Part shown: one piece after another, positions 13,394-36,583 of the stretch
How the letters are laid out: every line of letters starts with the position of its first letter
Position numbering within the stretch: position 1 is the stretch's first letter
Assembly: GCA_032718475.1 (NCBI GenBank)
Contig: JAUCBJ010006767.1
Coordinates: 1-37,064, forward strand
DNA: 37,064 bases
From: Nemertoderma westbladi
Lineage: Eukaryota > Animalia > Xenacoelomorpha
Reading direction: 5' to 3'
Notes under the pieces: model-generated
What the model was told of the DNA's origin: nothing
What the model saw: only the letters and a program-made list of their open reading frames with translations
The model's database searches: none
Made by a program: the position numbers and the translations under genes

Positions 13394-13680
13394 TGTAAAA
13401 GCTTTTGCGTAATTAGCCGGTTATTTTCCCTTAAAGTACTCTGTAGTTGCTTTGCCAGGCATAAAAAGGCCGTGTCCTTGCTGTACTGGTGTTTTAGAGG
13501 ACATAAAAGTCATTTCTTATGTATTTGTACTGTATTTGTACTTTAGAGGACATAATCCACAATCTCGTGACGCAATAGCTGGATACTTTGAAAACAGTGT
13601 CGCTACCATGACGACGGCTGGCAGCTGATATTGCCACGTCGACGTTTCTTTGTTTCTTTGTTCTCTCGTTGTTCAGGTTG

Positions 13681-13745
13681 ACCAATCAGAGCGTTTGTTG
13701 TCTCTGTGTTGGAGGTATATACAGAAACTCAGTAGTTCAGTGTTA
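13681..13745 (+). promoter_or_regulatory. Candidate LTR core promoter (CCAAT box, TATA-like, TCAGT initiator-like)
   Basis: CCAATCAGAGCG and a downstream TTCAGT are conserved in both LTRs (28867-28878 and 28813-28818 on minus). Confidence 0.5.
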
Positions 13746-14514
13746 TGTTTTTGCCCAGAGCCTAAGAACCGGCTTTTGGCACCTCCGTGTTTTCAGTTTT
13801 AGTCTTACACTAGTAGGTTTAATTATAAGGGCATATATCCTTTAACTCATGGAATCACTGATCTGGGAATATACTGACTGCTGACACACGGCTTGTAATA
13901 ACTGCTGAAACTGCTAAAATTACCTGCTCAATCGATACTGTGTACTGCTATTTGTTGTCGGTTATTCATTATATTGGTTGATGAATTATTATATTGGAAT
14001 AACGAGAAATAACCCCGAAAACCCAATATTCTTGATATACCGAAGGTAAGAGAGAAAGGTTACCAATAACGATTGTGACTTATGTTAAAGTGGTTTGAAG
14101 TGAATCTAATGTTATTTGATAGACCCTACATGAGTCAGTCTGTGTTCCTTTTATATGTGACTAAAATCAGTGAAGATTGGCAGATTAGTGTGCAGTATTG
14201 TGCAGCATTGTGTATGAGTGAGTCTGTTAAAGAAGCATTTCCTAAAGAATGCGCCATATATGTGAATTATAATTAAGCCATATCGTTGTGAGTAGTTTAA
14301 GTCATAACTCTGTTTATATAGATAAAGCGCCACGTCCTAAAGGAACTGTTAATATTCCCGAAGGTGAATAATATTGTCAGAGATTATATAATACTGTCAG
14401 TCGAATAATACATTAGGCTTACATAGCAATAAAATTAAACCGTCGAACCCAATCTCCCGGGAATATCCAGCGGGTGAATGATCGCGCACAGATTGGTTTC
14501 GACTAGTGTAGTGA

Positions 14515-14520
14515 ATTAAA
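14515..14520 (+). terminator. Candidate polyadenylation signal ATTAAA in LTR
   Basis: Conserved at the equivalent position of LTR 2 (28018-28023, minus), ~90 nt from the LTR end. Confidence 0.45.
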
Positions 14521-14671
14521 TACTTGTCATAGACTAAAAGTGATTTATTATCTAGAAGACATTCTAATTTGGCGGGTTAAACTGCCAAAGGTCTGAAAGC
14601 GCGAACATTAAAGGATATAGCTTCTTTATTGCAGTAAGCAATAAAGTTGAAAGTACCGGTCAACCGGTAAA

Positions 14672-16870: not shown

Positions 16871-19087
16871 ATGTCTGATACTAAGCAGAACCTGTCAGAC
16901 AGTATATTAGATGTAACTATCTGCGACTCAGATAGAGACGTAGAACCGTCTGGTCGTAAGTTCAGTTCACCTCCCACTGTGAGGAAAGTCATCCCTCCAG
17001 TAGTAATAACAGAACCTAGGCTGGTCCAGCATCGTAGGTCTATCATAGGCACTCGAGCCCAGGTCAAGCGGGACCAAGAAGCAGCGGAGCAGCAACAACC
17101 CGTGAGCCAAGAACTTATTTCTCAGCAGCCCGACAGCTCCAGTAGTGAAGATACGGTAGAACTGACACCCGAACGCGGAGCAAGGATGATGGATGAGGCT
17201 TATTCAGATCCCCTTCTCATCCTTCCTGCAGCCGTACTCACTAGGTTATTGATCGCTGTGGAAGAACACCAGATCGATTGGGCGAGAAGCCAGCGTTCAA
17301 CTAGAGATAGTTATGCTGGATACACAAGGGAAGAACTGAAGTCCATGGTAGAGTCGCAATGGAACTTCCCCGGACCCGGACTCCCGTTTGATTTATCAGA
17401 AGCTGCCTGGGAAGACATACACCGGATGGGAGTAGCCAAGGAAACCATCGATCCAGCTGTGTGGAAGAGGTCCGCAGCCGGATACGCACAGGGATTCTTC
17501 AGCTCTATAGAGCGATTAAAAGAACAACTGTTTCAACAACCTCAAGGACCTCAAGAGCAGGGATTGCTGCTTTATCAAGTTAGAGAAAGAGTTCTACGAA
17601 TCAGGCTAATATTATCGGCCTTTGAGGAGGCTTCTAAACGAAGGCAAGACACGTCGTTGCAAGTTGCCGTAAAGACTTGGTTTCAAAGGGTGAGTCTCCA
17701 GGTTCAAGGAACAGCTCAGTGGAAAGCTCAGTTAGAGGAGCGCTCAACCCATGGAGAATCAACAGACACTACTTTTTCCCAAGTGGAAAGTGAAGCGACG
17801 GCAGAGAAACCGCATAAGAGGGATGCCATTGACATCTATCTGTCAGACTATCAACGTTTTTTAGGTGATGACGAGTTGAGGAGAAGGTTAGAGGGACTTA
17901 GCCCTAATAGTGAAGGAACCAAGCTTGTGTTGGATGCCATCGATGTGGAAATGAGGGCTGCGAACCAGGCTAAATTTGATGAACAACTCCGCATCACCAG
18001 AGTCCAAGAAGAACAAGTAAAGAAAAAACGTATAGAAGACAGAAAGGCAGCGGCAGTAGCAGCAGCAGTGGCAGCTGCAGAAGCAGAAAGAAAAGCGGCA
18101 GCGGCAGAGGCAGCGGCAGAGGCAAAAGCGGCAGCGGCAGAGGCAGCGGCAGAGGCAAAAGTGGCAGCGGCAGAGGCAAAGGCAGCGGCCGAAGCGGAAA
18201 GAAAAGTGGCGGAGGCAGTGGTAGAAGCAGAACGGAGAGCGGCTGAAGAAACCACCCAATTAGAATTGGAAAACATTCAGGAGAATCAAGACTGCATAAA
18301 TAAACAGTTAACAGCTAGTAATATGCAGATGATGAATCGATCTACTCCCAAAAGACAGGGATATACATCATCTGAGGAAGGCGATACCACCGATACGGAA
18401 GGCAAGGGAAATAGATCTCGTCTAAGTAGACGTAAAAGAACATTCCACCTTCAGAAATTGCCTGATTTGCCTCCAGCTGTTAGAAGGCAACTAAATAACA
18501 CCAACTTAGGTAGTACAGAGCCCACAGACCAAATAATTAAAATAGAAAGACTCCCTACGATAGTAGATGAGCCTGAAATAATTAGGCCTGTTCTTGAAAT
18601 CACCCCTTCGGTGATAGACACACCTGTGCTCCCTGAAACTACCTCTAAATTCCCTCTGCATAGCACTAAGCTACCTGTGCCCCGTAGAACTGCCCCGGAT
18701 ACAGTTCAGGTCCTGGACCCCGAGCGAATTATTCATAATTTGTCGCCCGTTGTCCCTCGTCCGCCCGCTACAACGTTGGCGACTCCCGCTTCGGCGGTCG
18801 AATGGGTGGACGAGAGATGGCGGGGGATGGATATCCTGCTCGGGCAGATGCAGGAGACTGTCCAGCAATTCAAGGGCACAGTAAGGGAAAGTAGGCTAGA
18901 GTTGCAAGAAGTGCAGCAAAGTATCGCGCTTGAACGCGATAAATTAGTAAATACCCAAAAGGGTATACCACCACCCTCTGTAACAATGTGTCAACCTGTT
19001 AGGTCTGAAGTATCGCATGCGCAAGGTGTGGAGCCTACACGCATATATACTGCTAGCGAAGTAGAAACCTATAGTGAACCCTATTAA
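16871..19087 (+). CDS. 738-aa ORF, probable N-terminal part of the BEL/Pao Gag polyprotein (helical/coiled-coil, Ala-Glu-Lys repeat, Pro-rich tail)
   Basis: Long ATG-initiated ORF directly after the leader, overlapping gag-pol by ~20 nt; no catalytic motif recognised. Confidence 0.8.
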   Translation: MSDTKQNLSDSILDVTICDSDRDVEPSGRKFSSPPTVRKVIPPVVITEPRLVQHRRSIIGTRAQVKRDQEAAEQQQPVSQELISQQPDSSSSEDTVELTPERGARMMDEAYSDPLLILPAAVLTRLLIAVEEHQIDWARSQRSTRDSYAGYTREELKSMVESQWNFPGPGLPFDLSEAAWEDIHRMGVAKETIDPAVWKRSAAGYAQGFFSSIERLKEQLFQQPQGPQEQGLLLYQVRERVLRIRLILSAFEEASKRRQDTSLQVAVKTWFQRVSLQVQGTAQWKAQLEERSTHGESTDTTFSQVESEATAEKPHKRDAIDIYLSDYQRFLGDDELRRRLEGLSPNSEGTKLVLDAIDVEMRAANQAKFDEQLRITRVQEEQVKKKRIEDRKAAAVAAAVAAAEAERKAAAAEAAAEAKAAAAEAAAEAKVAAAEAKAAAEAERKVAEAVVEAERRAAEETTQLELENIQENQDCINKQLTASNMQMMNRSTPKRQGYTSSEEGDTTDTEGKGNRSRLSRRKRTFHLQKLPDLPPAVRRQLNNTNLGSTEPTDQIIKIERLPTIVDEPEIIRPVLEITPSVIDTPVLPETTSKFPLHSTKLPVPRRTAPDTVQVLDPERIIHNLSPVVPRPPATTLATPASAVEWVDERWRGMDILLGQMQETVQQFKGTVRESRLELQEVQQSIALERDKLVNTQKGIPPPSVTMCQPVRSEVSHAQGVEPTRIYTASEVETYSEPY

Positions 19088-22000
19088 GGGTAATTATAGA
19101 CCTGTTGATAATGACATTCCCTATAGACCTGATCATAATCCGAGAAATTTATATACCGATAACTCGATATTAAATAACACGATGGCCCAAGAAAGTTTTA
19201 CGCGTCAAATGGCTAGAACCGAAGCCCGGCAAGCGGTGAAGGTGGGAGAGATAGTCAAATTCAATGGAGATGAGATGAAATGGTTACCTTTTAATGAATA
19301 TTACAAAGATAACATACAGAACTCTGTACTATCTAATGGAGAAAAACTTAGATACCTCATCGAGTGCTTGGAAGGATCTCCCAAGTTAATGGCGTTAAAG
19401 TTTATTGGACATCCAGACGGATTAAGACAAGTTTGGGACACGCTAAACATCAGGTATGGTAATAGGAATAATATCGCTAAGTATTTATATGCAAAATTAG
19501 TAGCGCCCAGAAAGTTCATCAGCAGTGGGATAATAGAGTTTTCCGATGAGATTCAAGAGATCTGTAGACAATTAGATTGGTTAGGTAAGTCTCATGAATA
19601 CCAAAGTTCTATGGTCATTGGAGCTGTGGCTTCTACTTTACCGAAAGGTGGGGTAGGCACACGCTGGGATAAGAAAGTACTATATATGATGGAACAACAA
19701 CGACGAGACCCTACCATGGCTGATCTCATGTCATTCTTGGATGGAGAAGTGAAATTGCAACTCCTCAAGCAGTCCCGAGAGAAGACACCGGAAAACAAGG
19801 TAAGTGAAAAACCCGTCTCTAGGAGAAAGGTAACACCAGTGTGTTATACAGACGACGGCGAAAGCCAGACTTCTCAAGGAGAAGATAGCGGGAAAGACAC
19901 TGATAGATCTTATTATGTCAATAAAATGCCTAAAGATCAGGTAAGTAAATTCAAGTCTCGAGCAAATGACAGGAGAGAACAGGTAAGAAAAACTCCTCCC
20001 ACGTCTCCCAAGAGAATTCAGGTGAGAAAGCCCGAAGAAAAGGCAAGTGTACACAATGTGACTCAGAATAAGGTAAGTAACATCAAACCGAAATGTGCGC
20101 TGTGTGACGGGACCCACCATTTGAATAGGTGTGATGAATTTCTAAAGAAATCATTAACGGAGAGACGCGAAGTCATGTGGGATAAGCGGTTATGTTATAA
20201 TTGCCTCAGACAAGGACACCAACGGCGAACCTGTTTCTCTGACATAAGGTGTGCAAAGTGTGGTGCGAAACATCATATCTTGTTGCACGCTGAATTCGAT
20301 CGAAATAGTCCGAATCAGGTAAGTGATTCCGAGCTACATGTCCAATTCAGTGATGTGAACGACACTGATCAATCTGAGATGGAAGGATTCTATACAGACG
20401 AGTTCTCCGACGAAAATGAATCCTGTTACATGATAAATACCGCAGTGTATCGAGCACTCACATATGAAAAGGATACAGACAACGACTTCACTCTAACTAC
20501 TTCTGAGCGACAACCATCTTGGAAAGAGCCATCTTCCAATGTAGGGATCCGAGAGTTTCCTGTAGTGCAAGTGAGGGTTCACGGACCTAAGAGGAGTTAT
20601 GTAGTGAACGCCCTCCTTGACTCCGGTAGTACAGGAACATTCATCGACAAAGAGCTAGCCGAAGATATATTTGCTGGACAACTCAAGTTCCAAACTAAGC
20701 TCAACATGTCTGGCATAATGCAAGTTTGGAAATCTACAATCACAGCGGATTATTATGTAGGAGCGTTGTCCACCCCCCAGGACGAACTAGGAGAACATAG
20801 CATAAGGTCAGTGAAAATGGTGGCTATAAAGAACTTCGCTACTACTCAAGCAGACCTTTATAATTGGGACGAGGATGAGAGCATCCAACATCTTAACATA
20901 CCTCGATTCCAGACTGATTATCCTGGAGTGCGAATACTCATCGGCCAAAACGCGCATGAGGCGCTGGAGACATTAGAGAAACGGCCTGCTCAACCGCAGC
21001 CCCTACAGACCTATGCGGTAAGAACTAGAGTAGGTTGGTACTTTACTGGCCCTTCCCGTAGAACACTCAAAGAAAGACTACCGCAAGAGCGCGTCTGTCA
21101 GGTGAGTGAATGGGAAGATGATACTAGTGAAGGAGACGATTCAACTGAGGGAATTCCATACTCCTCAGATAACGACAACGTTCACCAGCTTTTTGATGAG
21201 GAGAATACCATCGATCTCCTTAAGGAAAACGAGGCTTGGCAAAACCAAGTGAACTTATGTCAACTTCTCTATCCATCTGAACGAGAAGCTTACAACGACG
21301 AGTTAAATGACGTCATTGAGCGTTGCAATGCCAAGACTCGAGATGAACATGCTGTACGATTCTTTACGCAAGAGGCGGTAGAGCCCAATTCCTACGATAA
21401 GGCTTTATCAGTGGAAGAGGAAAGGGCCAAGCAGATCCAAGAGACGACTACACGTTTCATCAAAGATCAAGGTAGGTATGAAGTCGGTTTACCTTTTCGC
21501 AAGAGAGAACCGAAGTTCATCAATAACAGACCTTTGGCGGAAAAAAGAATCGCGCAACTCCATCGACGCCTTACGGCTAATTCTTCAGCGAAAGCAATGT
21601 ATCAAACACAGCTGGAAAAATTTATTAATAAGGGATACGCGGAGAGGGTACCGGAAGAAACACCTGTGACTGAAAGAACGTATTATTTAACTCACCATTA
21701 CGTTCCTAAACCCGGTAAACCAAATGAAGTGAGAGTAGTGTTTGATGGCTCCACTCTTTACATGGGTCAATCCCTTAACTCTGAATTGTTACCCGGACCC
21801 AACTTGCTTCAATCTTTGTTGGGAATTCTTTTAAGATTGAGACAATATTCGATTGCTTTCGCCTCCGATATAGAAGGCATGTTCTTACAAGTCAAGGTGT
21901 TAGATAGGGATCGAGATAGTCTACGATTTCTGTGGTGGCCCGAAGGAGATCTCAACCAGAAACTGGTGGAGTACTGGATGACCATCCAGGCCTTTGGGAT

Positions 22001-25000
22001 AATCTCAAGCCCTTCCAACGCCTGTTCGGTAGTGCGTACTACTGCAGAGGACAACCGAGAGGCATTCTCTAAGGAAGTGATCGACAACATCAAGAGAGAC
22101 ATATACATGGACGACAATCTGAAGTCCCTCCCATCAGTTGAGGAAGCCATTGAGGTCGCTAAGGGAACGGTAGAGTGCTTAAAAAGAGGTGGATTTCGAT
22201 TAACCAAATTCACCAGCAACTCCCGTGAGTTTCTGGAGTCGATCCCTGCGGAAGATCGAGGAGCGAAAGATCTCGATTTGATCAAAGATGATCTGCCAGA
22301 AACCAAGACACTCGGCTTGAAATGGGACACAGAGCGAGATATCCTGTTTTTCCAGCTAAAACAGCGAGATAATCCAGTTCGAACCAAACGGATTTGCTTA
22401 AGTATACTGAGCACTTATTTCGATCCATTGGGATTTATTAGCCCAGTTATATTGATTGCTCGAAGTTTGGTACAACAAATGTGGCTTGAAAACCACTCAT
22501 GGGACGATCCACTTAAGGGAGAATTATTGAAGAAGTGGATGAAATGGGAAGATTCTCTACCGGCCATCGAAGATTTTATAATTTCCCGTTCATATTTTGG
22601 TCATGTTCTCCCTACGTATTCCTATCAATTCCATGTGTTTGGAGACGCCAGCGATATGGGAATCGGTATAGTAGCCTACCTAAGAGTGGAAACTCCGGAT
22701 GGAATCAAAGTCGCCTTGGTTACTTCTAAGGCATTAATCAACAACAAGTTGAAAGTTCCTCGAGCGGAGTTAAAAGCGGCTCTATACGCTACAGCCATCG
22801 GCCGGAATGTAACCGAACAGATTGACTATACATTAGAGAAAACTGTCTATTGGACCGACGCTTTACTCGTGTTAGAGTATATAACCAATGAAGTCTGTCA
22901 GTTCAGCGTCTTCGTTACCAACAGGGTAGCCATCATACTTAGTCGCACGACGATGGACCAATGGAGACATTGCCCCGGAACGATTAACCCAGCAGACATC
23001 GCTTCCCGAGGAGCGACTCCAAAGGAATTGGTAAATACTCCCGAATGGTTAGGAGGACCTGACTTTCTCTACAGAGAAGAAGAAGAATGGCCTCCCCATC
23101 TCACAACAGCAGAGATCAGACAGGCCAAGGGAGCAGAGAAAGTTAAACCCAAAACTCGAGCGAGTAAATCGAAGTTGTTTAAACCTGCGGTTGATCTATC
23201 GGTATTATTTACTTCCGGAGAAGATGCTTTGGATCAGAAACCCACCGCCACGACTAAAGAAGTCTTGGAAATCCGTGACAAGGATTGGAAATCTGGAATA
23301 CCAGATATTTCGCAAGAACTCTCACCTCTCTTGCAGAGAGCGATACGTCACTACAGTTCCTGGAATCGGCTCTGTAAAGCTGTCACCTATCTGAAACGAT
23401 GTTTTCATCATCGTTACTCCGGGACAAAGACCAATAGTGATGATGCTCCATCAACATCTGCACGAGTCCATGTTGTTAAAGATCTTCCTAAATACAAGAT
23501 ATCCGACAGGTTTCTAAAGGAGAAGATCAGTTACCAGGAGCATGATGAAACCAACAAACAGATGCTGAGACTCCTACAATGCTATGAGGATTCCGATAAG
23601 TATTTCCTGTTATTAAGAAATCCACAGATGCGCTTAAGGGATCGCTTCTCTAGTACCATGATAGATGGGTTAATACGTGTTGGAGGCAGGCTGACCAACG
23701 CCCCATTATCCTTTGACACTAAGTTTCCCATCCTCATTAGAAATCTTGATATACAAATCAAGATGATTGTAGATGTTCATAGCAAACTGTATCATGCTGG
23801 TAGAGAACGAGTTCTGAGCGAAATTCGAACTCGCTACTATTTTTATAAACCCCGTAGGGCTCTGAACCAAGTTCTTAGGAACTGTATACCCTGTAGGAAA
23901 GCATTCAGTAGGCCTTTAACACAGCGAGAGGCAGAATTACCTAGGGAAAGAGTAAGCTTCTATGAACCACCCTTTACTAATACCGGTGTGGATTTATTTG
24001 GCCCTATTGAAGTATATCGTGCCCGGACTATAGTCAAGAGATGGTGTGTCATCTTCGTTTGTATGACTTGTAGAGCTATCCATCTCGATATGGTAAACGA
24101 TCTATCCACCAACAGCTTCGTGTTGAGTTTACGACGACAGATCGCTCGCTTCGGAACCAGTAACACGATGAGATCGGATAAGGGAACGAACTTCATTGGC
24201 GCCAACAACGAAATTCAAGCTTACGTAAAGGACTGGAACAAAAGACAGGTGGACGATCAGCTAAGGATAACAGCGTCTAGCTGGACCTTCAACGCCGCCG
24301 ACGCCCCTTGGTGGGGAGGAAGTTGGGAGAGATTGATTAGGAGCGTGAAGACTGCGTTCCACTTTATTGTGCCTTGTCGCGCTTATCTCACCGACGAACT
24401 ATTGCGGACGTTAATGGAGGAAATCGCCGCCTATCTCAACGAAAGACCGCTTATGCCAGTCTCTTCAAATCCTGATTCCCTGGAAGCGCTAACACCCGCG
24501 CACTTTCTACTGAAGAAACCCGTAGCCATGCTCCCACGATCGGAGATCACAGACGGAGACGAGTACTGCCGTCGAACCTGGCAACTTATGCAGTTGCTAT
24601 CCCATCGTTTCGCTGACCATTTCGAGAAACATTACCTGCCCACTCTACAACTTCGAACTAAGTGGTTTGCGCAGCAAGAAAACGTCGGCGCTGGAGACAT
24701 GGTGCTTATTGTGGACCCCGATCTCCCACGTAAGCGATGGCAAACAGGACGTATCATCGAGACTTATATCTCGAGCGATGGTTTGGTGCGATCAGTAGAG
24801 CTCGTCGTCATGCGGCGGAACTTTAAGAAACCAGGGATAGTCTTTGAGACTCAACAGCTCAACCGCCCAGTGGGTCGTTTATGTTTACTGGAAAGAGACA
24901 GAGAGCTCTCCGGAAACTATGGAAGGCAAGAAACTCTTCCCACGACCACTTCCCTAATCCAACCGACATCTAGGGACTCCCCAACGCTCATTAATTTGTT

Positions 25001-25037
25001 TGATAAATCTTTTGTAAATTACGCAAATATACTGTAA
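19074..25037 (+). CDS. BEL/Pao Gag-Pol polyprotein (capsid-like DUF1759-type, 3 zinc knuckles, aspartic protease, RT, RNase H, integrase)
   Basis: KFNGD..W..F, CALC..HHLNRC / CYNC..GHQRRTC / CAKC..HHILLH, LLDSGS, SDIEGMFLQV, YMDD, FGDAS, PRAEL, NPADIASRG, HHCC, GVDLFGP, SDKGTNF, GGSWERLI; listed start is GTG, first ATG is 19182. Confidence 0.97.
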   Translation: MNPIKGNYRPVDNDIPYRPDHNPRNLYTDNSILNNTMAQESFTRQMARTEARQAVKVGEIVKFNGDEMKWLPFNEYYKDNIQNSVLSNGEKLRYLIECLEGSPKLMALKFIGHPDGLRQVWDTLNIRYGNRNNIAKYLYAKLVAPRKFISSGIIEFSDEIQEICRQLDWLGKSHEYQSSMVIGAVASTLPKGGVGTRWDKKVLYMMEQQRRDPTMADLMSFLDGEVKLQLLKQSREKTPENKVSEKPVSRRKVTPVCYTDDGESQTSQGEDSGKDTDRSYYVNKMPKDQVSKFKSRANDRREQVRKTPPTSPKRIQVRKPEEKASVHNVTQNKVSNIKPKCALCDGTHHLNRCDEFLKKSLTERREVMWDKRLCYNCLRQGHQRRTCFSDIRCAKCGAKHHILLHAEFDRNSPNQVSDSELHVQFSDVNDTDQSEMEGFYTDEFSDENESCYMINTAVYRALTYEKDTDNDFTLTTSERQPSWKEPSSNVGIREFPVVQVRVHGPKRSYVVNALLDSGSTGTFIDKELAEDIFAGQLKFQTKLNMSGIMQVWKSTITADYYVGALSTPQDELGEHSIRSVKMVAIKNFATTQADLYNWDEDESIQHLNIPRFQTDYPGVRILIGQNAHEALETLEKRPAQPQPLQTYAVRTRVGWYFTGPSRRTLKERLPQERVCQVSEWEDDTSEGDDSTEGIPYSSDNDNVHQLFDEENTIDLLKENEAWQNQVNLCQLLYPSEREAYNDELNDVIERCNAKTRDEHAVRFFTQEAVEPNSYDKALSVEEERAKQIQETTTRFIKDQGRYEVGLPFRKREPKFINNRPLAEKRIAQLHRRLTANSSAKAMYQTQLEKFINKGYAERVPEETPVTERTYYLTHHYVPKPGKPNEVRVVFDGSTLYMGQSLNSELLPGPNLLQSLLGILLRLRQYSIAFASDIEGMFLQVKVLDRDRDSLRFLWWPEGDLNQKLVEYWMTIQAFGIISSPSNACSVVRTTAEDNREAFSKEVIDNIKRDIYMDDNLKSLPSVEEAIEVAKGTVECLKRGGFRLTKFTSNSREFLESIPAEDRGAKDLDLIKDDLPETKTLGLKWDTERDILFFQLKQRDNPVRTKRICLSILSTYFDPLGFISPVILIARSLVQQMWLENHSWDDPLKGELLKKWMKWEDSLPAIEDFIISRSYFGHVLPTYSYQFHVFGDASDMGIGIVAYLRVETPDGIKVALVTSKALINNKLKVPRAELKAALYATAIGRNVTEQIDYTLEKTVYWTDALLVLEYITNEVCQFSVFVTNRVAIILSRTTMDQWRHCPGTINPADIASRGATPKELVNTPEWLGGPDFLYREEEEWPPHLTTAEIRQAKGAEKVKPKTRASKSKLFKPAVDLSVLFTSGEDALDQKPTATTKEVLEIRDKDWKSGIPDISQELSPLLQRAIRHYSSWNRLCKAVTYLKRCFHHRYSGTKTNSDDAPSTSARVHVVKDLPKYKISDRFLKEKISYQEHDETNKQMLRLLQCYEDSDKYFLLLRNPQMRLRDRFSSTMIDGLIRVGGRLTNAPLSFDTKFPILIRNLDIQIKMIVDVHSKLYHAGRERVLSEIRTRYYFYKPRRALNQVLRNCIPCRKAFSRPLTQREAELPRERVSFYEPPFTNTGVDLFGPIEVYRARTIVKRWCVIFVCMTCRAIHLDMVNDLSTNSFVLSLRRQIARFGTSNTMRSDKGTNFIGANNEIQAYVKDWNKRQVDDQLRITASSWTFNAADAPWWGGSWERLIRSVKTAFHFIVPCRAYLTDELLRTLMEEIAAYLNERPLMPVSSNPDSLEALTPAHFLLKKPVAMLPRSEITDGDEYCRRTWQLMQLLSHRFADHFEKHYLPTLQLRTKWFAQQENVGAGDMVLIVDPDLPRKRWQTGRIIETYISSDGLVRSVELVVMRRNFKKPGIVFETQQLNRPVGRLCLLERDRELSGNYGRQETLPTTTSLIQPTSRDSPTLINLFDKSFVNYANIL

Positions 25038-25778: not shown

Positions 25779-27926
25779 CTACGGCACTGGGGGTGTGTGT
25801 AGACTGATATCTCCCGCACCTACAGCACTGGGGGTATGTGTAGACTGATATCTCCCGCACCTACAACACTGGGGGTGTGTGTAGACTGATATCTCACACA
25901 ATGCATCGGCCCGCACCTACTGCACTGGGGGTGTGTGTAGACTGATATCTCACACAATGCATCGGCCCGCACCTACAGCACTGGGGGTGTGTGTAGACTG
26001 ATATCTCCCGCACCTACAGCACTGGGGGTGTGTGTAGACTGATATCTCACACAATGCATCGGCCCGCACCTACAGAACTGGGGGTGTGTGTAGACTGATA
26101 TCTCACACAATGCATCGGCCCGCACCTACAGCATTGGGGGTGTGTAGACTGATATCTCCCGCACCTACAGCACTGGGGGTGTGTGTAGACTGATATCTCA
26201 CACAATGCATCGGCCCGCACCTATAGCACTGGGGGTGTGTGTAGACTGATATCTCCCGCACCTACTGCACTGGGGGTGTGTGTAGACTGATATCTCCCGC
26301 AACTACAGCACTGGGGGTGTGTGTAGACTGATATCTCACACAATGCATCGGCCCGCACCTACAGAACTGGGGGTGTGTGTAGACTGATATCTCACACAAT
26401 GCATCGGCCCGCACCTACAGCACAGGGGGTGTGTGTAGACTGATATCTCCCGCACCTACTGCACTGCGGGTGTGTGTAGACTGATATCTCCCGCACCTAC
26501 TGCACTGGGGGTGTGTGTAGACTGATATCTCACACAATGTATCGGCCCGCACCTACTGCACTGGGGGTGTGTGTAGACTGATAACTCACGCACCTACAGC
26601 ACTGGGGGTGTGTGTAGACTGATATCTCACGCACCTACAGCACTGGGGGTGTGTGTAGACTGATATCTCCCGCACCTACAGCACTGGGGGTGTGTGTAGA
26701 CTGATATCTCCCGCACCTACTGCACTGGGGGTGTGTGTAGACTGCTATCTCACACAATGCATCGGCCCGCACCTACTGCACTGGGGGTGTGTGTAGACTG
26801 ATATCTCACGCACCTACAGCACTGGGGGTGTGTGTAGACTGATATCTGCCGCACCAACAGCACTGGGGGTGTGTGTAGACTGATATCTCCCGCACCTACA
26901 GCACTGGGGGTATGTGTAGACTGATATCTCACACAATGCATCGGCCCGCACCTACTGCACTGGGGGTGTATGTAGACTGATATCTCACACAATGCATCGG
27001 CCCGCACCTACAGCACTGGGGGTGTGTGTAGACTGATATCTCCCGCACCTACAGCACTGGGGGTGTGTGTAGACTGATATCTCACACAATGCATCGGCCC
27101 GCACCTACAGCACTGGGGGTGTGTGTAGACTGATATCTCCCGCACCTACAGCACTGGGGGTGTGTGTAGACTGATATCTCCCGCACCTACTGCACTGGTG
27201 GTGTGTGTAGACTGATATCTCCCGCACCTACTGCACCGGGGGTGTGTGTAGACTGATATCTCACACACCTACTGCACTGGGGGTGTGTGTAGACTGATAT
27301 CTCACACAATGCATCGGCCCGCACCTACAGCACTGGGGGTGTGTGTAGACTGATATCTCCCCCACCTACTGCACTGGGGGTGTGTGTAGACTGATATCTC
27401 ACACAATGCATCGGCCCGTACCTACAGTACTGGGGGTGTGTGTAGACTGATATCTCCCGCACCTACAGCACTGGGGGTGTGTGTAGACTGATATCTCCCG
27501 CACCTACTGCACTGGGGGTGTGTGTAGACTGATATCTCCCGCACCTACAGCACTGGGGGTGTGTGTAGACTGATATCTCACACAATGCATCGGCCCGCAC
27601 CTACAGCATTGGGGGTGTGTGTAGACTGATATCTCACATAATGCATCGGCCCGCACCTACAGCACTGGGGGTGTGTGTAGACTGATATCTCCCGCACCTA
27701 CAACACTGGGGGTGTGTGTAGACTGATATCTCACACAATGCATCGGCCCGCACCTACAGCACTGGGGGTGTGTGTAGACTGATATCTCACATAATGCATC
27801 GGCCCGCACCTACAGCACTGGGGGTGTGTGTAGACTGATATCTCCCGCACCTACTGCACTGGGGGTGTGTGTAGACTGATATCTCCCGCACCTACAGCAC
27901 TGGGGGTGTGTGTAGACTGATATCTC
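25779..27926. repeat. Satellite of interspersed 41-bp and 56-bp units (GCACCTACAGCACTGGGGGTGTGTGTAGACTGATATCTC + CC or ACACAATGCATCGGCCC)
   Basis: Roughly 45 units, directly visible. Confidence 0.97.
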
Positions 27927-29195
27927 TGTACGCGCTTTTGAAGACCTTTAGCAGTTTAACCTGCCAAAATTTATATGTCTTTTGGTTTATAAATATACTT
28001 TTAGAAGAAGACAAATATTTAATACCAACAAACACAACATTAGCAGAAGCCAGCCTAGTGCGCGTCCATTCACCCGCTGGATAATCCCGGGAGACTGGAT
28101 TCTGTCGGCTTAAATTATTATTGCAGTGAAGCTTACTGTATTGTATTATTCGATTGATCGTTAATAATTAATTTCTGACTAATATTATTTACTTTCGGGA
28201 AATATTAACAGTTCCTTTAGGACGTGGCGCTCTATCTAAGTAAACAGAGATATGACTTATACTAATCACAACGGTAAGTCGGTAAGGCTTAAGATTCACG
28301 TATGAGGCGCATTCTTTAGGAAATGCTTAGTTATCAATCACAATCATGCACAATACCGGTAACACACAATACTGCTCACTAATTTGCCGACCGTCAATGA
28401 ATTTTATCATATATAAAGGGAATAGCAACGGACCAATGTAGTGCTTATTAAATAGCATTAAATTCACTACAAACCACAACAATATAAGTCGCAATCGCTA
28501 TATATAACCCGTCTCTCTAACCTGTAGTGTATCAAGAAAATTGGGAAATTTGGGTTCTTTATATATGTTCTCCAAATGATATTCAACCAAACACAACAGT
28601 AAATAGCAGTATAATAATGTATGTTAAACAGTAATAACAACAAAGTATTGAATTATGAATGGAATTGTTAAGATTAGATTGGATAACAGTCATACGCTCT
28701 ATAATTTAAGCCTACTAATGTTTCTTATAAAAGTATGAAACGAATTGATTCTAGAGCCGTTGTTCCTGGCCTAGACAGCAATAACAACAAAGTATCCAGA
28801 AAAAACAGTAAGACTGAACACTCTCCTTATGATCGACCGAAAAGCTACACCGTCGACAGGAAAAATCGCTCTGATTGGCTCAAGCCAAACAAAGAACCAT
28901 GCGTCCAATGGCTGTTTCCATGTCAGCAACCAGCTGTTAGATGTCGTAATATGAATCATCACGGCTAAGCTATGAAAGGTATTTGCCGCATTGCAGGTTT
29001 TTTGTCTTACCATGTCCGCTAAAACACGTATATAGCAAAATGACTTTTATGTCCGTTAAAAACACCTGTAACGGTACCTTGAGGGCGAGGGGAATATTTA
29101 TACAGTTATAGAACCTTTTTAGAGTATTCCAGCGCCTGGGGGGAAACTGGATTGCGAAGCAAAGGGGCCAGTTATATCCCACAGAAGCTTTTACA
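27927..29195 (-). repeat. 3' LTR of element 2 (1269 bp, TGTA...TACA)
   Basis: Diverged inverted homologue of 13394-14607 (e.g. AGCGCCACGTCCTAAAGGAACTGTTAATATT shared exactly); clean junction to satellite. Confidence 0.9.
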
Positions 29196-29203
29196 CCGCT
29201 CCC
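29196..29203 (-). promoter_or_regulatory. Polypurine tract GGGAGCGG
   Basis: Short G-rich tract directly abutting the TG of the 3' LTR; absent in front of LTR 1. Confidence 0.7.
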
Positions 29204-29273: not shown

Positions 29274-32200
29274 TTAGTCTTTCTTGCGCGGACGGCGTTT
29301 ACGCAGTTTTTTAAAGCTAGCAAGAGTCCTTTTCTCTTTGGGGCGAGCCACTTTACAAGGAGGGCTATAACTCCTGGGTGAAGGGTGCAATATGATTGCA
29401 TCAGAGGGTGTAGGATTATGGTCGGTGTATCCGCCAGTCGAAGTACCGGGTTGATTGACATCAACGTCAGGTGAGAGGGGTCTAACGGCTTTGAGAGCTC
29501 GTTTCAAGACAGCCGCTCTTACGGGTCCTTTACGAGTGGTCTGAACGAGGGCCGTGGGTGGACCATAGGCAGTTAGAAACTTCCGGGGTTTAATGGTCCT
29601 TTCCAACTCGCGTTCGCGGGCTCGGTATTCGTAAGGCCGTCGATGTACTTCCTGCAACTCGGGGTGTGAGTTAACAAACAAGTCTCCATAGTCTGGATCC
29701 TGACGGATATAATTGATTAAGTTATAGGAATGAAGGTCGCTAGGATTAACACTCCTGAGAAATTTGCGTACGAATTTAGTTGAAATACATTCTCCGACGC
29801 GCTTCAGTAGCTCGTAACTCGATATGCGTGATTTCTGTTCAACAGAAGCGAATAGATAAGGATGGAACGCATAAACTCCTTCGTAAGCGCGTCCGGGATA
29901 ATAGCGATGGCGCGAATCACAATGTAAATCAGCGTTCGCTTCCCAAGCTCTGATGTAACGCAGTGTGATCATTTCATCTACGCTTTCCAAATCGTGATTA
30001 AAAGGGCAGTCGAAACTAGCATGTCCCTTTAGTTGACAATGGTGACATTGAGTCATAAATTGAGGGCAAACCGCAAAGATATGCAGGTTATTGAGTCTGC
30101 AATATGCGCAATAAATTTCCATAGTCGGTTGTTCTTGGAAATAGGAACAGCGGACGTTGGTGTCCATGGGCGTATCGTGGTCTCTCGATGCGCATAACCG
30201 ACAACGTTGCCTAGAAACATAGTTGGCATGGCGATAATCGTACGCAGTGAGACACTGTGGGCCTTGATACCATTCTATGATGTAATCGTTGTCGCTGGTC
30301 CGGGGCGCGATAGGCTGAATCTCTTCAGATTCTAGACATATTGGTTCGTCTTCCAAGTGCATAGCTGAAGTGGGCGTGTCTGTCTCTTCAGGTGGACCTA
30401 TCGTCTGAATTTCCACGACAGAATAACCTGTGGGGATTCGAGGTCTTTGTATAACTGAGGAGTGCAAGTTCGATATACAAATCTCTTGGAAAATGGCGAA
30501 TCCAGCGCTATCCAACTTCTCTGCAGCTGAGTTTCTTAGGCTGAGTTTGGTCAAAGCGCGGTCTTTAAATTGGCTATCCACGTTGCGAAACGGGGTTAAA
30601 AATCTCCGGAAACATTCGAAACGGATGAATTTATTATGTTCATCTAGTTTCGCGAGTTTGGTCCCAAGTATTAATGGATGGGCGCGTATAGTACGACTGC
30701 ACACATCGGCTAGCCAACCGGCAAGTGCGGTGTTTTCAAAGATCGTGTATATAGCTAAGGAGGGACGGAGCGGAACACTCATGAAGCTATACACGGCGCC
30801 AGGTGCGGTCAATGGTCCATCAAAGTATAATCGAGAATAATGGTCTCCGTATACCTGTTGATAGTTAATGGGATTTCCGACCTTGAAATTCCATCCGTAT
30901 TCCTGAAAGGCAAGATGTCCGATGGAAGTTCGTTGCACCTTGGTAATGTTGCTAGACGTATTAGCATACATGGTGCGGAAGAAACCTCGACCTTCTGCCC
31001 AGGGAGCAATCAGCTGAGTATCAACGAAAGGGTATGGAATGTCCTCCATATTTCGAAAGTCGTTTTGGAGATCTCCATAAACAGCTGAGCCGATTTTAAG
31101 GATTCTTTCGTTGAACAACATCTCGAGTACGGGCTGGGGTAACATCGATCCATCGATGCCCATGGCCGGTTTGCGTTCGGTGTCAATGACGTAACGCTGC
31201 GCGAGTTCGAATTGTCCATGTCGGAGATTCTTTTGTGTTTCGGTGAGAGTTTCAAAAGAATAATCAATCAAGTCGGAACACGCTCGAGTAAACACGTGGG
31301 TAGAACCAGCTAATCCGCGGATGTGGATCATGCGCGTAGTTCCTAGCTCTCCGACCGGAACGCTACCTTCATTATCGTAGGTGACAACTCCATACGTCTC
31401 GATAACATTAAGAGTTTCATTCCACTCCTTGGTGGCATTCTCTAGGGTCATCCCTACTGGATGCCACAAGGTGGCGCATTGGTTAGCGTCAGGGAGATCA
31501 CTATACTTCATATGCCGAGTGGTATACGTCTCCACATTTCCAAATCTTTGTATTTTCTCTTCTTCAAATAATACATCTAGATTCCAATGGACTAATCGAG
31601 TTTTAATAAATCCATCGATGTTATAAGGAGGTTCTATATCTTTCTCGATTCGAGAAATGTTATATGGTTTTCTAAATGAGTTTACCTTTACTAACTGATC
31701 CAGATGTTTCTGCAATTGTTCGAGTTCGACAATGTCTAGAGGATTTATTAGTGGTAGAAACTTTAAATCATGTGTCGGGTCTTCTGGTTTTACCATATAA
31801 TATTGAGTCAGATTAACGTAATAAGGGTGGTCTTTAATCCCGTAAAACGAGTTCTGTAAAGGTCTAGCGCATATGTTGACATCGTGTACCATACGACGGA
31901 CAAGATCCGCTCGATTGTCCGGAGGTTCAACGAGTATACCGTCAACACGAGCGGCCTCGATCGGCGGACGCTGTAACATAGGGGCGTCAGCGATAAGGTT
32001 TTGCGATCCTGTACTGATATCAACCGGTTGAGGTTGTATCGTCGCGAAGAGCTTGTCTCCGAAATGTGGAATCATAGAGGGATGACGAACGGTTTTAGAG
32101 TAGAGGTCCGTCATGAGAATTTGAGCTTCAGGTTGGGCTAAAGCGGCTTCTTCTCTTTCTTCCAGTTTCGTGTGTTTCTCTTCGATTAGATTTTCTTCTG

Positions 32201-33527
32201 CTTGTCTCTGTAAGCGTTCATCTAAAAATTCTTGTAGAGAATACGTGCGTCCAAGCTCGATGTCTTCCTCGAGGTTTTGGATTTCTCTATCGAACTGTGG
32301 CAAGGCTAACTCCTTCACCGATTGGACTTGTTGTTGTAATTTACGTTTCTCTAAACAATCTTGTGTTCCCTTTCCGATTTTCTGTCGAATGGCGTCTAAA
32401 GCGTTTCTTATAACACTCTCCTCGACTTCCGTGGCGGGTTGTATCGGGTTTAATCCTGGACGATTGTAAGGATCAAAGGGCGATATTAGCTGCCCGCGTC
32501 CCAATCCGGCTAAGTAGGATGGGCGGATGTCTAACGAACCCACTACCGGAGCACCACCGATTAGTTGTTCGGGTAACACTAAGTCTTTGAACAGGGAATA
32601 TAGTTCGGGAGGATCAGTGATACTGTTAGGATCAAGAGTTTGAGGTCTCACTAGGGAATGAGGAGGCCTGACCGAGTATTCCAGAACTCTGATCATGGGT
32701 TTATTCAGTGATCGTTTAAGACGAGCGATCGTGGGTGGTACGTCGAACAGGTTTCGCTCGAAACTCCCGTAAGTGTAACGCGTAAAACTATGTTTAGCGC
32801 AACGTCTCCGCGGATGTTTATGTCTTTCAGTTTGTTGGTTAGGTCTAGGACACTCGTCACAATAATACCAAAGACGTACGTCCTGTAGAGGAAACGCGGG
32901 TGTTCGTTCTCCAGTTTTGCAGTATTCTTCCATTTGTTCAAAACTATCCGGGATAACAGGTAGTGGACGATCGGCGGTAAGATACATCATAGTGAAATAG
33001 AGCCGTTTGAGTTCTACTACAGGGTCGTGATGGATACCTTGAGGATATCGAGTCTCTAAGTTCTGCTGACTAGCGACGTTGAGATAGGTTTCTCTCAAAA
33101 ACTCTAAGTATTCGTTGAAGTCGATGCGTTTATCCGGTTCTTCAACGTTTTCTCTTTCTAGTCTATTACGAATAGAATTTTCGTGATCTATTCTCGGCTT
33201 ATCGTTACGACTCCGCTGGGTATGATATTTAAATAGAACCATTTCCCTTTCTGTATCTACATCGTCCGTATCATGTAAGTCGATAGGATGGCCGGTCGTT
33301 AGGAAGTCCATATACGTACCATTACGATTCGTATAGCGAGTGGTGAATTTTCGATAGTCCAATTCACGCGCAAGTTGCTCTTGGGACATCGGCGGTTCGA
33401 TATAACGACCATCGTCCTCCGTAATGGTTGGATCGGCTTCACCGCGTATTAAGCTATCCACAAATGCTTGCAAAGGTAGAGTATATCGCTCCCTAATACC
33501 AAGATCATTTTCGATTAACTCCGTCAT
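29274..33527 (-). CDS. 1417-aa accessory protein: CxxC..CxxH finger, coiled coil, DnaQ-like (WRN/EXD-type) 3'-5' exonuclease domain, three CCHC knuckles, basic C-terminus
   Basis: VVTYDNEG (ExoI), LPQPVLEMLFNERILKIGSAVYGD (ExoII), FVDTQ, PLRPSLAIYTIFE (ExoIII-like); CRLC..H..C, CAYC..H..C, CHHCQLKGHASFDC; native ATG placed at 33527 because the first 34 codons of the tracked ORF are LINE-derived. Confidence 0.85.
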   Translation of the reverse strand: MTELIENDLGIRERYTLPLQAFVDSLIRGEADPTITEDDGRYIEPPMSQEQLARELDYRKFTTRYTNRNGTYMDFLTTGHPIDLHDTDDVDTEREMVLFKYHTQRSRNDKPRIDHENSIRNRLERENVEEPDKRIDFNEYLEFLRETYLNVASQQNLETRYPQGIHHDPVVELKRLYFTMMYLTADRPLPVIPDSFEQMEEYCKTGERTPAFPLQDVRLWYYCDECPRPNQQTERHKHPRRRCAKHSFTRYTYGSFERNLFDVPPTIARLKRSLNKPMIRVLEYSVRPPHSLVRPQTLDPNSITDPPELYSLFKDLVLPEQLIGGAPVVGSLDIRPSYLAGLGRGQLISPFDPYNRPGLNPIQPATEVEESVIRNALDAIRQKIGKGTQDCLEKRKLQQQVQSVKELALPQFDREIQNLEEDIELGRTYSLQEFLDERLQRQAEENLIEEKHTKLEEREEAALAQPEAQILMTDLYSKTVRHPSMIPHFGDKLFATIQPQPVDISTGSQNLIADAPMLQRPPIEAARVDGILVEPPDNRADLVRRMVHDVNICARPLQNSFYGIKDHPYYVNLTQYYMVKPEDPTHDLKFLPLINPLDIVELEQLQKHLDQLVKVNSFRKPYNISRIEKDIEPPYNIDGFIKTRLVHWNLDVLFEEEKIQRFGNVETYTTRHMKYSDLPDANQCATLWHPVGMTLENATKEWNETLNVIETYGVVTYDNEGSVPVGELGTTRMIHIRGLAGSTHVFTRACSDLIDYSFETLTETQKNLRHGQFELAQRYVIDTERKPAMGIDGSMLPQPVLEMLFNERILKIGSAVYGDLQNDFRNMEDIPYPFVDTQLIAPWAEGRGFFRTMYANTSSNITKVQRTSIGHLAFQEYGWNFKVGNPINYQQVYGDHYSRLYFDGPLTAPGAVYSFMSVPLRPSLAIYTIFENTALAGWLADVCSRTIRAHPLILGTKLAKLDEHNKFIRFECFRRFLTPFRNVDSQFKDRALTKLSLRNSAAEKLDSAGFAIFQEICISNLHSSVIQRPRIPTGYSVVEIQTIGPPEETDTPTSAMHLEDEPICLESEEIQPIAPRTSDNDYIIEWYQGPQCLTAYDYRHANYVSRQRCRLCASRDHDTPMDTNVRCSYFQEQPTMEIYCAYCRLNNLHIFAVCPQFMTQCHHCQLKGHASFDCPFNHDLESVDEMITLRYIRAWEANADLHCDSRHRYYPGRAYEGVYAFHPYLFASVEQKSRISSYELLKRVGECISTKFVRKFLRSVNPSDLHSYNLINYIRQDPDYGDLFVNSHPELQEVHRRPYEYRARERELERTIKPRKFLTAYGPPTALVQTTRKGPVRAAVLKRALKAVRPLSPDVDVNQPGTSTGGYTDHNPTPSDAIILHPSPRSYSPPCKVARPKEKRTLASFKKLRKRRPRKKD

Positions 33528-33528
33528 A

Positions 33529-34060
33529 CTACTAGGATCGGCATGCTGCATTGCAGCTGCATTTTTAAGAATGCTGTGCCGGCTTGTCAACAAAATTGCA
33601 CCGCCACAACTCCCTATCACCCATGACATTTGCTAGATCATCCGCATCTTTAAGGCCAGTGTCCTTTAAGATGCGTCTCAAGAAAGTCATGGGCTGTCCA
33701 CCATGCTTATTCACTCCATGAGGCTGCCAAAGTACAAGATTATGCACTGGCTGGTCCTCACGGCGAAAGCAATGTCCTGCAAAGCGGAGGCGATTTTGTT
33801 CTAGTGTCAAGCTTGGGGGAACCAATGAGACACCTCCAATGTTATATAGTGTCTGGTTGGAGATGTGTGCATTGTACTTGACACAATGTACCCGGCGTAG
33901 CATTCTTGTGAATGTGCCATCCAGAGATTTGGTGTCCTCAGCAGTTAGAGCCCAGCATGGACTCCCGTAGAGGAGTACTGGAACTACTGCTGCTCTAAAT
34001 AATCGGACCTTAAGTTTCCGATTAATTCTAGGTGACTTCCAAATCCTGGAAAGCCTATTC
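33529..34060 (-). mobile_element. 532-bp 5'-truncated RTE LINE with 12-bp TSD AACTCCGTCATA
   Basis: TSD at 33517-33528 and 34061-34072; KVRLFRAAVVPVLLYG, RLRFAGHC motifs; short (TAG)n tail. Confidence 0.93.
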
Positions 34061-34883
34061 AACTCCGTCATATCTGCTATCTGAGTTTATTAATATCAAA
34101 TAAGCTTGTATTTAGGCGAGTGGGCGTCGCTGCCTACTTTTCTTTGCCCCCGGACAGTGGGATTCTCAGCGCCGATGTACCGTCGTCGCGGTGTTTACGC
34201 CAACATGTAGCAACAGCACGACAACGATAACCGGCACAAGTCACTCCACTGTCCGTCCCAAAGGCTTGGATCCACTTAGGTTCTATCTATAGGAGAGTTG
34301 GGCTATTTTTACAATTGCGACTAGCTACGGTAAACATACTTTAGCAGTAACATTCACCTATAAACGCACAAATTCCACACAACTGTCAACAACTGCACAC
34401 ACACAGGCCATTTGTCCGTTAGTCAGTGCCTTCCAGAATGTCACGTTATTACTGTGTATCCTTGGATACTAACAGTGTGCTATGTTCTCTATGCTAGGCA
34501 ATGGGACAAGCTTTCTATTGTTCTTTTAACTTGCTTCTAATTCTAGCGTGGGTGTTGCTATGGTGACATTATGGAATGCTAGCGGTAGAATTAGGGTAAT
34601 TCTCATGCATACAGATCTGGGATGCTATTTAATAATAATTCTTTAATTGTCAATATCCTCTTTATGCATGATTTTATTAATTTTATCGGCTATTGACTAT
34701 ATGTTGGAGATTCTCGCACTCTAATACACTCAATAGGATGAATCTCCGCTCCCATGATCTATTAATTAATGGAATTTTGGGAATGTTATAAATTGTACAA
34801 ATGACAATTTATGAAATTCATTTAAAAATATGAATTTAAATTTATTCCCGTGAATTTTATTATTTGATGTTAAAATTGACACA

Positions 34884-35175
34884 ATTTGATTCCAGAGCAG
34901 GTCTGGGGACATAGGATCCTTAATTCTATGAAATTTGTCTTTTAAGAGTATCGGGAAGTGCTACGATATCTTAATCGACTAGAATTGTTAACGGATCTGA
35001 ATTTTACAGATTTTAATAAATATTAAATTAATATTTAAGATGGGCACCGATTTATTCCAGAACTTGTCTGGGGACGTTAACCATTGATTCTAGAATTTGT
35101 CTTTCAAGTATATCGGTGGGTGCCGCGATATCTTAATCGACTAGAATTACAGATGGTCAAAAGGTTTAACAGATT
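34884..35175 (-). repeat. Two ~120-bp diverged direct repeats (period ~166 bp) in the pol / extra-ORF spacer
   Basis: ATTCCAGA..GTCTGGGGAC..AATTTGTCTTT..CGATATCTTAATCGACTAGAATT present at ~34884-35000 and ~35050-35160. Confidence 0.85.
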
Positions 35176-35692
35176 TATTTGCGTTTTACTCTACTGTTAG
35201 AAGGACATCACGCTACTATATGTATTATTTAATATAAGGTAGAAGAGCAATATCGCACGAAGCAATGTCAGTGTGAAGAGGCAAGTCGTTTCCAAGGTCT
35301 ACCCAGAGCTTGGTTTAGCCGAGACACGAGGATCTGAACTTTGCATTCCTAATACTCTGCCTACCAATAATACTTGAATATAGTAGTGGCTTTATTGTAC
35401 TTTAAGAAGTACGGACATTTCATTTTACTGTAGTCGCGTATTTATAATATGATACGGACAGTAAGGAAAGAGAAAAATAATTATTTTCTCGCCGTCACAC
35501 TAATATATTATAAGTAATTACGTACGTAATAAACACAAATATATTGCACTAATCTACTAAATAATCACTAAAATAACATTTCACTAAATAAAATTGAATA
35601 AAAATGATTATAATAAAGTACATAATAAAGTTCGCATATAAAATATAATAAAATAGATAAAACAATATAGTCATACACCCACTCCAGACGTA

Positions 35693-36583
35693 TCACGTTA
35701 AGGAGTCCCTAGATGTTTGAGGAATTAGGGAGGTGGTCGTGGGAAGAGTGTCTTGCCTTCCATAGTTCCCGGAGAGTTCTCTGTCTCTTTCCAGTAAACA
35801 TAAACGACCAACTGGGCGATTGAGTTGTTGCGTCTCAAAGATGATGCCTGGCTTCTTGAAGTTACGCCGCATGACGATGAGTTCTACCGAGCGTACTAAA
35901 CCATCATCTGAGATGTGGGTCTCGATGATACGACCTGTCTGCCACCGTTTACGTGGGAGGTCTGGATCTACAATAAGCACCATATCTCCGGCGCTGACGT
36001 TTTCTTGCTGCGCAAACCACTTAGTTCGAAGTTGTAGCGTGGGCAGATAATGTTTCTCGAAATGGTCAGCGAAACGACGGGATAGCAACTGCATAAGTTG
36101 CCAAGTTCGACGGCAGTATTCGTCTCCGTCGGCAATCTCCGATCGTGGGAGCATGGCTACGGGTTTCTTCAGTAGGAAGTGCGCGGGTGTTAGCGCTTCC
36201 AGGGAATCGGGACTCGATGAGACTGGCATAAGCGGTCTCTCGTTGAGATAGGCAGCGATTTCCTCCATTAACGTCCGCAAAAGTTCGTCGGTGAGATACG
36301 CGCGGCATGGCACTATAAAGTTAAATGCAGTTTTGACACTTCGAATTAATCTCTCCCAACTTCCTCCCCACCAAGGGGTGTCAGCGGCGTTGAAGGTCCA
36401 GCTAGACGCTGTTATCCTTAGCTGGTCGTCCACCTGTCTTTGGTTCCAGTCCTTCACGTAAGCCTGTATCTCGTTGTTGGCACCTATGAAGTTCGTTCCT
36501 TTATCCGATCTCATGGTATTACTCGTCCCGAAGCGAGCGATCTGTCGTCGTAAACTTAAGACGAAGCTGTTAGTAGATAGATC
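35693..36583 (-). pseudogene. BEL/Pao integrase core and C-terminal domain, 5'-interrupted
   Basis: About 15 aa differences in ~296 aa versus the C-terminus of 19074..25037; similarity stops at 36583. Confidence 0.95.

Follow-up and report, generated by a model that had tools for sequence, protein, structure and literature searches.

A 37,064-nucleotide stretch of the Nemertoderma westbladi genome (contig JAUCBJ010006767.1 of assembly GCA_032718475.1, positions 1 to 37,064; here called the window) contains part of a BEL/Pao retrotransposon, element 2, in which an additional open reading frame (ORF) occupies the env position, between the integrase and the 3' long terminal repeat (LTR). This frame, ORF3, encodes 1417 aa, carries a predicted 3'-5' exonuclease domain of the RNase D/DEDDy type followed by three zinc knuckles, and is kept by purifying selection. 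Its product may be directed against host small-RNA silencing, a role that is proposed here tentatively.

ORF3 and its place in the element

Pieces of two related BEL/Pao elements face each other head-on in the window, with element 1 lying on the plus strand and element 2 on the minus strand. Element 1 has the BEL/Pao set of Gag and Pol domains in the order protease, reverse transcriptase (RT), RNase H, integrase (DUF1759, knuckles, protease, RT with YMDD, Peptidase_A17 at E 3e-35, integrase and DUF5641), while element 2 shows the integrase end only. Over 888 nt this end is 89.5% identical to the integrase of element 1 (frame at 19182–25037), a likeness that stops at 24986. Because the window copy of element 2 lacks its 5' part, no one copy here displays ORF3 together with gag and RT.

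Downstream of its integrase fragment, element 2 has a non-coding spacer, ORF3, a purine-rich tract (GGGAGCGG directly before the LTR) and an LTR with TG..CA ends, all on the same strand. Between this LTR and its 5' counterpart in element 1 the identity is 75% (score 652; 20 shuffles scored –160 or less). The ORF3 stop lies 78 nt from the LTR, and the frame has neither introns nor internal stops. ORF3 lacks both a signal peptide and a membrane segment (top 19-residue hydropathy 1.21; acidic N-terminus), and so does not have the signal peptide and anchor that would mark it as env. A preliminary description of this DNA, made from the sequence alone, had proposed an intact, intronless gene between a BEL integrase and the polypurine tract (PPT) and 3' LTR, not env-like and ending about 80 nt before the LTR, and in all of this it was correct. 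No domain could be assigned to the N-terminal ~690 aa; the first 560 aa, searched against family libraries only, gave no family.

At the start codon of ORF3, the window copy has an inserted 3' fragment of a long interspersed nuclear element (LINE), which is 544 nt long, 5'-truncated, and flanked by a 12-bp target duplication (34072–34061 and 33528–33517) with an ATG in each copy. Contigs of the sequencing runs X4 and X5 (see below) join the spacer straight to the ORF3 start (33528 to 34099/34112), so other copies are without the LINE, and 1417 aa is the native length. A longer reading of 1451 aa from an ATG at 33629 was discarded, as that ATG falls within the LINE fragment. A conserved AG at 34075–34080, before the ORF3 start, and a strong donor-like site at 14045 in the LTR could yield a spliced ORF3 message.

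The exonuclease-like domain and its relatives

Five DnaQ-like motifs occur in ORF3 in the order given by the preliminary description, at residues 714, 796/811, 834, 868 and 919–931 (window 31388 down to ~30735). The predicted site residues are D718, E720, D819, Y927 and E931. Scored with a profile that combines 28 bacterial RNase D domains, the ORF3 protein, P0001, reached 17.1 bits (E 1.6e-7 as a single comparison) and the best of 300 shuffles 1.2 bits; P0001 was not matched by a second profile, made from 40 small RNase D-like proteins of bacteria. The best NCBIfam match was again RNase D (TIGR01388, aa 798–843, E 0.005, under the family cut-off), and hhalign aligned 146 columns with RNase D at E 6.7e-5, including all three Exo motifs. 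In a comparison of ESM Atlas features for aa 690–1020, PF01612 appeared in 25 of 30 matches at 0.92.

The Exo I pair D718/E720 aligns with the D-x-E of RNase D in alignments A1 and A4 and with hhalign; D819 aligned with the Exo II Asp in every trial, and Exo II and Exo III together in nearly all. At Exo III, the expected Y-x-x-x-D is replaced by Y927-x-x-x-E931, with the Tyr kept and Glu in place of Asp, and the homologue P0002 (see below) has the same change. As far as its sequence indicates, the domain is DEDDy-like, not canonical DEDDy. Downstream, three CCHC patterns confirm the zinc knuckles of the preliminary description; their cysteines and histidines are invariant in alignment A1, and Atlas rows for zf-CCHC at 0.86 are a lead only.

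An alignment that combined ORF3, P0002 and 23 rows of RNase D, chosen for its register, served to build a guided structural model (mean pLDDT, the predicted local distance difference test, 55, with 75–87 in the core; predicted template-modelling score 0.55). The model resembles DnaQ-family folds only. The Foldseek check suggested by the preliminary description did return DnaQ folds, with EXD2 as top match (E 3.6e-4), a result that is partly circular because RNase D rows had guided the model. With VIA-align, Z ranged from 12.2 to 9.8 for diDNase, RNase D, PolI exo, Exd1, Nibbler, WRN and Egalitarian (at best Z 12.2, root-mean-square deviation 3.0, 150 residues aligned), the small-RNA factors among them being Exd1 (Z 11.1), Nibbler (10.8) and Egalitarian (9.8); the top viral match was a Pandoravirus DnaQ-like exonuclease. 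As the Z values are tied, the model names no subfamily. It is compatible with a DnaQ fold and is not independent proof of one; the Atlas features give support that does not depend on the model.

Several of the results weigh against an exonuclease assignment. The sequence signals are weak individually: the hhalign probability was 63.6, the shared Atlas features numbered 153–154, under the 170 typical of same-family matches (as for distant relatives or chance), and neither ORF3 nor the domain had a significant match in Pfam (E<=1, scanned with the 1451-aa frame that contains ORF3), PHROGs or PDB sequences. The register of Exo I is alignment-sensitive, being recovered in 6 of 90 automatic settings, though in most global ones, and the canonical Asp of Exo III is lacking. 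Modelled from its single sequence, the domain reached a pLDDT of 32. With these points taken into account, a DEDDy-like fold is still considered very probable, and with rather less assurance the domain is predicted to be catalytically competent, with Glu as the fourth ligand.

Among 1.84 billion protein representatives, the only homologues of aa 560–1260 were P0002 (648 aa, E 5e-7) and P0003 (633 aa, E 6e-4). Both are orphans of about half the length of ORF3, and both repeat its succession of exonuclease-like domain, linker, triple knuckle and conserved post-knuckle motif. P0002, about 29% identical to P0001, shares all five site residues, the Glu included. P0003 differs in having a decayed site, with D-x-K in Exo I and no acid at Exo II or Exo III, while two knuckle modules are kept; its loss of most catalytic residues means that catalysis may be dispensable, a further point against an enzymatic role.

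These comparisons bear on the possibility that ORF3 is a pseudo-nuclease, whose DnaQ fold and knuckles bind, escort or shield the element's RNA without cutting it, in the manner of Egalitarian or Exd1. The Asp to Glu change at Exo III and the state of P0003 speak for it, as do the presence of Exd1 and Egalitarian among the fold neighbours of the guided model and the inactive DEDD derivatives that the available text of PMC5408684 describes in piRNA (PIWI-interacting RNA) biology. Retention of the complete site by two proteins as diverged as P0001 and P0002 argues in the other direction, and so do the 30 listed variants of ORF3 (below), all of which leave the site residues unchanged. The pseudo-nuclease explanation is regarded as unlikely.

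In L001 (124–3685), the only homologue locus recovered, P0003 is succeeded by a stretch that is AT-rich and resembles an LTR; a primer-like site beginning with TGG comes near 2963, and an acidic gag-like frame opens at 3390, an arrangement such as a tandem or collapsed LTR element would give. This context suggests that the ORF3 family travels on LTR elements. Other searches for relatives gave little: a word-indexed protein search returned no match for P0001 660–1250 or A1, and with P0002 found only itself; scans for related loci in viral contigs and prokaryote genomes found none; a plasmid tblastn gave one match, judged to be chance; and A1, run over 401 bacterial genomes, gave two matches at E<=0.01, one of them an RNase D, which are insignificant once the genomes are counted.

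Copies, selection and possible roles

The region is partly present in seven public sequencing runs from four studies, and contigs of five runs were compared; X5 and X7 are labelled organisms B and C, labels not counted as proof of other host species. ORF3 versions in these contigs diverge by 2–19%. Three X4 contigs over the same stretch (31917–32646) have 14, 93 and 114 differences (730–802 nt each), so several versions exist. The 30 ORF3 variants considered are the best supported in two listings, each from >1000 variants over the whole stretch; 23 of them are synonymous, where random transitions would be expected to give 34% (p 2e-6), and no variant creates a stop or alters a predicted active-site residue. 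Gap letters per substitution stood at 8/890 in 18 ORF3 pieces compared with 63/133 in 6 spacer pieces (counted by hand from the listed pieces, leaving aside LINE pieces and those at deletion joints). ORF3 is kept by purifying selection, as had been supposed in the preliminary description.

Internally deleted derivatives occur in both X4 and X5, where a joint of 30353 to 33158 retains both ends of ORF3. Contigs show further joints inside the frame (29684–31741 and 29465–31570), and in X7 (record 15) the LTR at 29049 is joined to the ORF3 5' part at 33160. The derivatives without most of the frame suggest that ORF3 is dispensable in cis.

Could ORF3 instead be foreign to the BEL element, either a gene of the host or a second mobile element that came to lie between pol and the LTR? 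None of the listed contigs spans integrase to LTR, so that their linkage on one molecule is shown by this window alone, which also counts against the interpretation preferred here. In addition, element 1 does not have the same spacer after its integrase (15-nt match only), and the window holds no further remnant of ORF3. Set against this are the 78-nt distance from stop to LTR with the purine tract abutting the latter, the intronless state and many diverged versions of the frame, and the absence from the window of any flanking repeat of its own. Furthermore, contigs join the spacer to the ORF3 start (X4, X5) and the LTR to its 5' part (X7), and the L001 homologue likewise precedes an LTR-like stretch and a gag-like start. 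A nested origin is accordingly very improbable, and ORF3 is assigned with high confidence to the BEL/Pao element.

The favoured, though tentative, reading is that ORF3 is a soluble RNA-binding 3'-5' exoribonuclease (predicted) which acts in trans against host small-RNA silencing. A trans-acting RNA exonuclease is favoured because of the RNase D-type match, the three knuckles, the basic tail, the lack of fusion to Pol and the deleted derivatives. The protein would be expressed from its own subgenomic message and enter the nucleus by virtue of its basic tail; the knuckles would capture RNA, and the DEDDy-like domain, with Glu as fourth ligand, would degrade it 3'-5'. Copies with most of ORF3 deleted would borrow the protein from intact copies. 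The most likely targets, proposed with similar caution, would be unprotected small-RNA precursors or guides, trimmed past useful length. Two further points are unfavourable to this role. Mature piRNAs are 3'-methylated and resist such exonucleases, and in the window copy the LINE fragment places an extra ATG and a 168-aa frame before ORF3, which may impair its translation. As precedents, the available portions of the respective texts give helicases that are carried by LINEs and suppress silencing weakly (PMC6338049), the part of arenavirus ExoN in suppressing immunity (10.1101/2021.02.01.429129), and the DEDDy ORF3 of rotifer elements as an element-borne exonuclease (PMC5408684).

The preliminary description had offered three roles, of which silencing suppression is ranked first, ahead of trimming of primers or transcripts and of an RNA chaperone function, with proofreading and a nested insert last. 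The idea of trimming derives from element 1, which, as had been noted, has no TGG-type tRNA primer binding site (PBS) after its 5' LTR. Here the exonuclease would mature RNA or primers of the element itself. A fragment of transcript would pair with the primer-site position by means of the 12-nt LTR complement, and ORF3 would cut the 3' end of this fragment back as far as the duplex, allowing reverse transcription to begin without tRNA. Over 12 nt, the primer-site position is an exact complement of a stretch in the element's own LTR, in register with the LTR end; among 2000 control stretches the longest such complement was 11 nt. A hairpin stands just before the final CA in both LTRs (14567–14588 and 27946–27967), kept although the two stems disagree at two places, where G-U pairs fall at different positions, and RNase D-type enzymes trim structured RNA according to the accessible text of PMC5408684. 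On the opposite side, the 12-nt complement rests on one copy and was noticed post hoc, no ORF3 accompanies element 1 in the window, element 2 differs at the corresponding LTR site and has its primer site outside the window, and folding of the element 1 leader favoured a different, G-U-rich partner (13742–13752). The TGG-starting site of L001, which we take to resemble a tRNA site, was also counted against it. Primer trimming is thus a doubtful alternative. A wider version combines several of these roles, in that a ~19-kb BEL/Pao lineage without tRNA priming would prime itself on its own LTR transcript, and a knuckle-exonuclease (a new DEDE-y family found on several LTR elements) would trim both the primer and host small RNAs; this is considered improbable.

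Proofreading, or cleaning of cDNA ends, in a very long (~19 kb) element was the third role. The summed length is ~18.8 kb (11,593 + 7,225 bp, from two different copies), more than the ~10 kb that is usual in the consulted part of PMC6431247; the guided model has DNA polymerase exo domains as some of its fold neighbours, and nidovirus ExoN is a precedent (10.1101/2021.02.01.429129, in the part available). Yet much of this length is non-coding DNA or ORF3 itself, and versions of ORF3 carry many substitutions between them. It is the weakest of the three roles because ORF3 is a separate ORF, unfused to Pol, its knuckles and best sequence match (RNase D) indicate RNA, and a homologue has a decayed site. 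We regard it as very unlikely.

The remaining features are collected in Table 1. Within element 1, the leader is 2.3 kb, the 738-aa first frame (16871–19181) has an alanine/glutamate/lysine repeat, and a stop and a frame change separate it from the 1951-aa frame. A 41/56-bp minisatellite (25779–27926) lies between the two head-on BEL pieces. Outside them, judged by eye, are a LINE-type RT frame (3018–4352), a broken non-LTR frame (10043–12527) between 74-bp direct repeats (9628, 12568), and an inverted repeat resembling a miniature inverted-repeat transposable element (1824–2679). Rfam gave nothing at E<=0.1 across 13000–37064.

Table 1. Coordinates of the two BEL/Pao pieces, ORF3 and its parts in the window
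Feature	Position	Strand	Basis or remark
5' LTR of element 1, 1214 bp, TG..CA	13394..14607	plus	
Primer-site position, element 1	14608..14619	plus	exact reverse complement of LTR 13834–13845
Element 1 gag-pol, two frames (738 aa, 1951 aa)	16871..25037	plus	
3' LTR (element 2), 1269 bp, with TG..CA ends and a terminal hairpin	27927..29195	minus	
PPT-like short purine-rich tract adjoining LTR	29196..29203	minus	
ORF3, 1417 aa, intronless	29274..33527	minus	ATG 33527, TAA 29274, no internal stop
Basic C-terminal tail of ORF3, possible nuclear localisation signal	29277..29312	minus	sequence
Post-knuckle conserved motif, E..A......R.R.....G...F	29859..29951	minus	common to P0002 and P0003
Three tandem CCHC-type zinc knuckles, aa 1109–1174, first with longer spacer	30006..30203	minus	pattern
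RNase D/DEDDy-like 3'-5' exonuclease domain (predicted), aa ~695–945	30693..31445	minus	profiles, Atlas, guided model
LINE 3' fragment, 5'-truncated, 544 nt, at ORF3 start	33529..34072	minus	DUF6451 E 3e-5
Non-coding spacer, integrase to ORF3, ~1.6 kb	34073..35692	minus	present in all sequencing runs compared
BEL/Pao integrase C-terminal fragment, element 2, 5'-truncated	35693..36583	minus	DUF5641 E 7e-21

Comparison with known systems

Env-bearing BEL/Pao elements such as roo, Tas and Cer carry an extra gene between integrase and 3' LTR. ORF3 shares that slot, and differs from their env in having no signal peptide or anchor and in its predicted enzyme fold, which is not that of a fusion glycoprotein. 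From the cellular DEDDy proteins (RNase D, EXD2, WRN exo, Nibbler/Mut-7, Exd1, Egalitarian and Rrp6), with which it shares the predicted fold and motif order, it is set apart by 8–16% identity, the Exo III Glu, and two insertions, one of ~35 aa that follows the Exo I strands and one of ~30 aa that precedes Exo III; its best sequence signal to RNase D lies around Exo II.

The closest parallel is found in bdelloid rotifers, where Rodriguez, Kenefick and Arkhipova (2017; PMC5408684) described RNase D-like DEDDy ORF3s in the elements Juno and Vesta, with the motif DEED. In the available text these were gained at least twice and are common to Terminons as well; the finding is restated in the reviews PMC6431247, PMC5718144 and PMC6338049, as far as these were accessible. 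The preliminary description knew of no such BEL/Pao arrangement. This holds to the extent that the full-text literature turned up no BEL/Pao element described with an exonuclease ORF (one may be catalogued in Repbase, Dfam, GyDB or in subscription journals, which were outside the search), and the available parts of PMC8220671 and PMC3601003 mention neither a nuclease nor self-priming for BEL elements. It does not extend to the arrangement in general, as a DEDDy ORF3 in the env slot was known from Juno and Vesta and ORF3 is therefore not a new category.

Enzyme genes in the env slot were previously known from that one rotifer study, with no function given in the text available. ORF3 adds what appears to be an independent case from a different LTR superfamily, one that shows clear purifying selection and has a module for RNA binding as well as naturally occurring deletion derivatives. 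This suggests that a 3'-5' exonuclease has been of benefit to LTR elements more than once, and makes ORF3 a concrete protein for asking whether animal LTR retrotransposons encode their own anti-silencing or primer-processing enzyme.

Compared by description, the rotifer ORF3s and the one reported here are alike in being a separate third ORF 3' of pol in an LTR element, in the env slot, with a fold of the RNase D-like DEDDy type (predicted in the present case), no membrane segment and a variant acidic tetrad. The differences, again by the available text of PMC5408684, are several. That text names only Juno, Vesta, TelKA and Mag, while the carrier here is BEL/Pao (Peptidase_A17, DUF1759, DUF5641). 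The predicted site here is D-E-D-E-y, as opposed to DEED, and the 1417-aa product includes three CCHC knuckles, which that text does not report in the rotifer ORF3s. Where rotifer env and GDSL ORF3s were tested, no clear departure from neutrality was seen, in contrast to the purifying selection on ORF3. What is new in ORF3 is its BEL/Pao carrier, its size, its knuckle fusion, its DEDE site and the orphan family to which it belongs.

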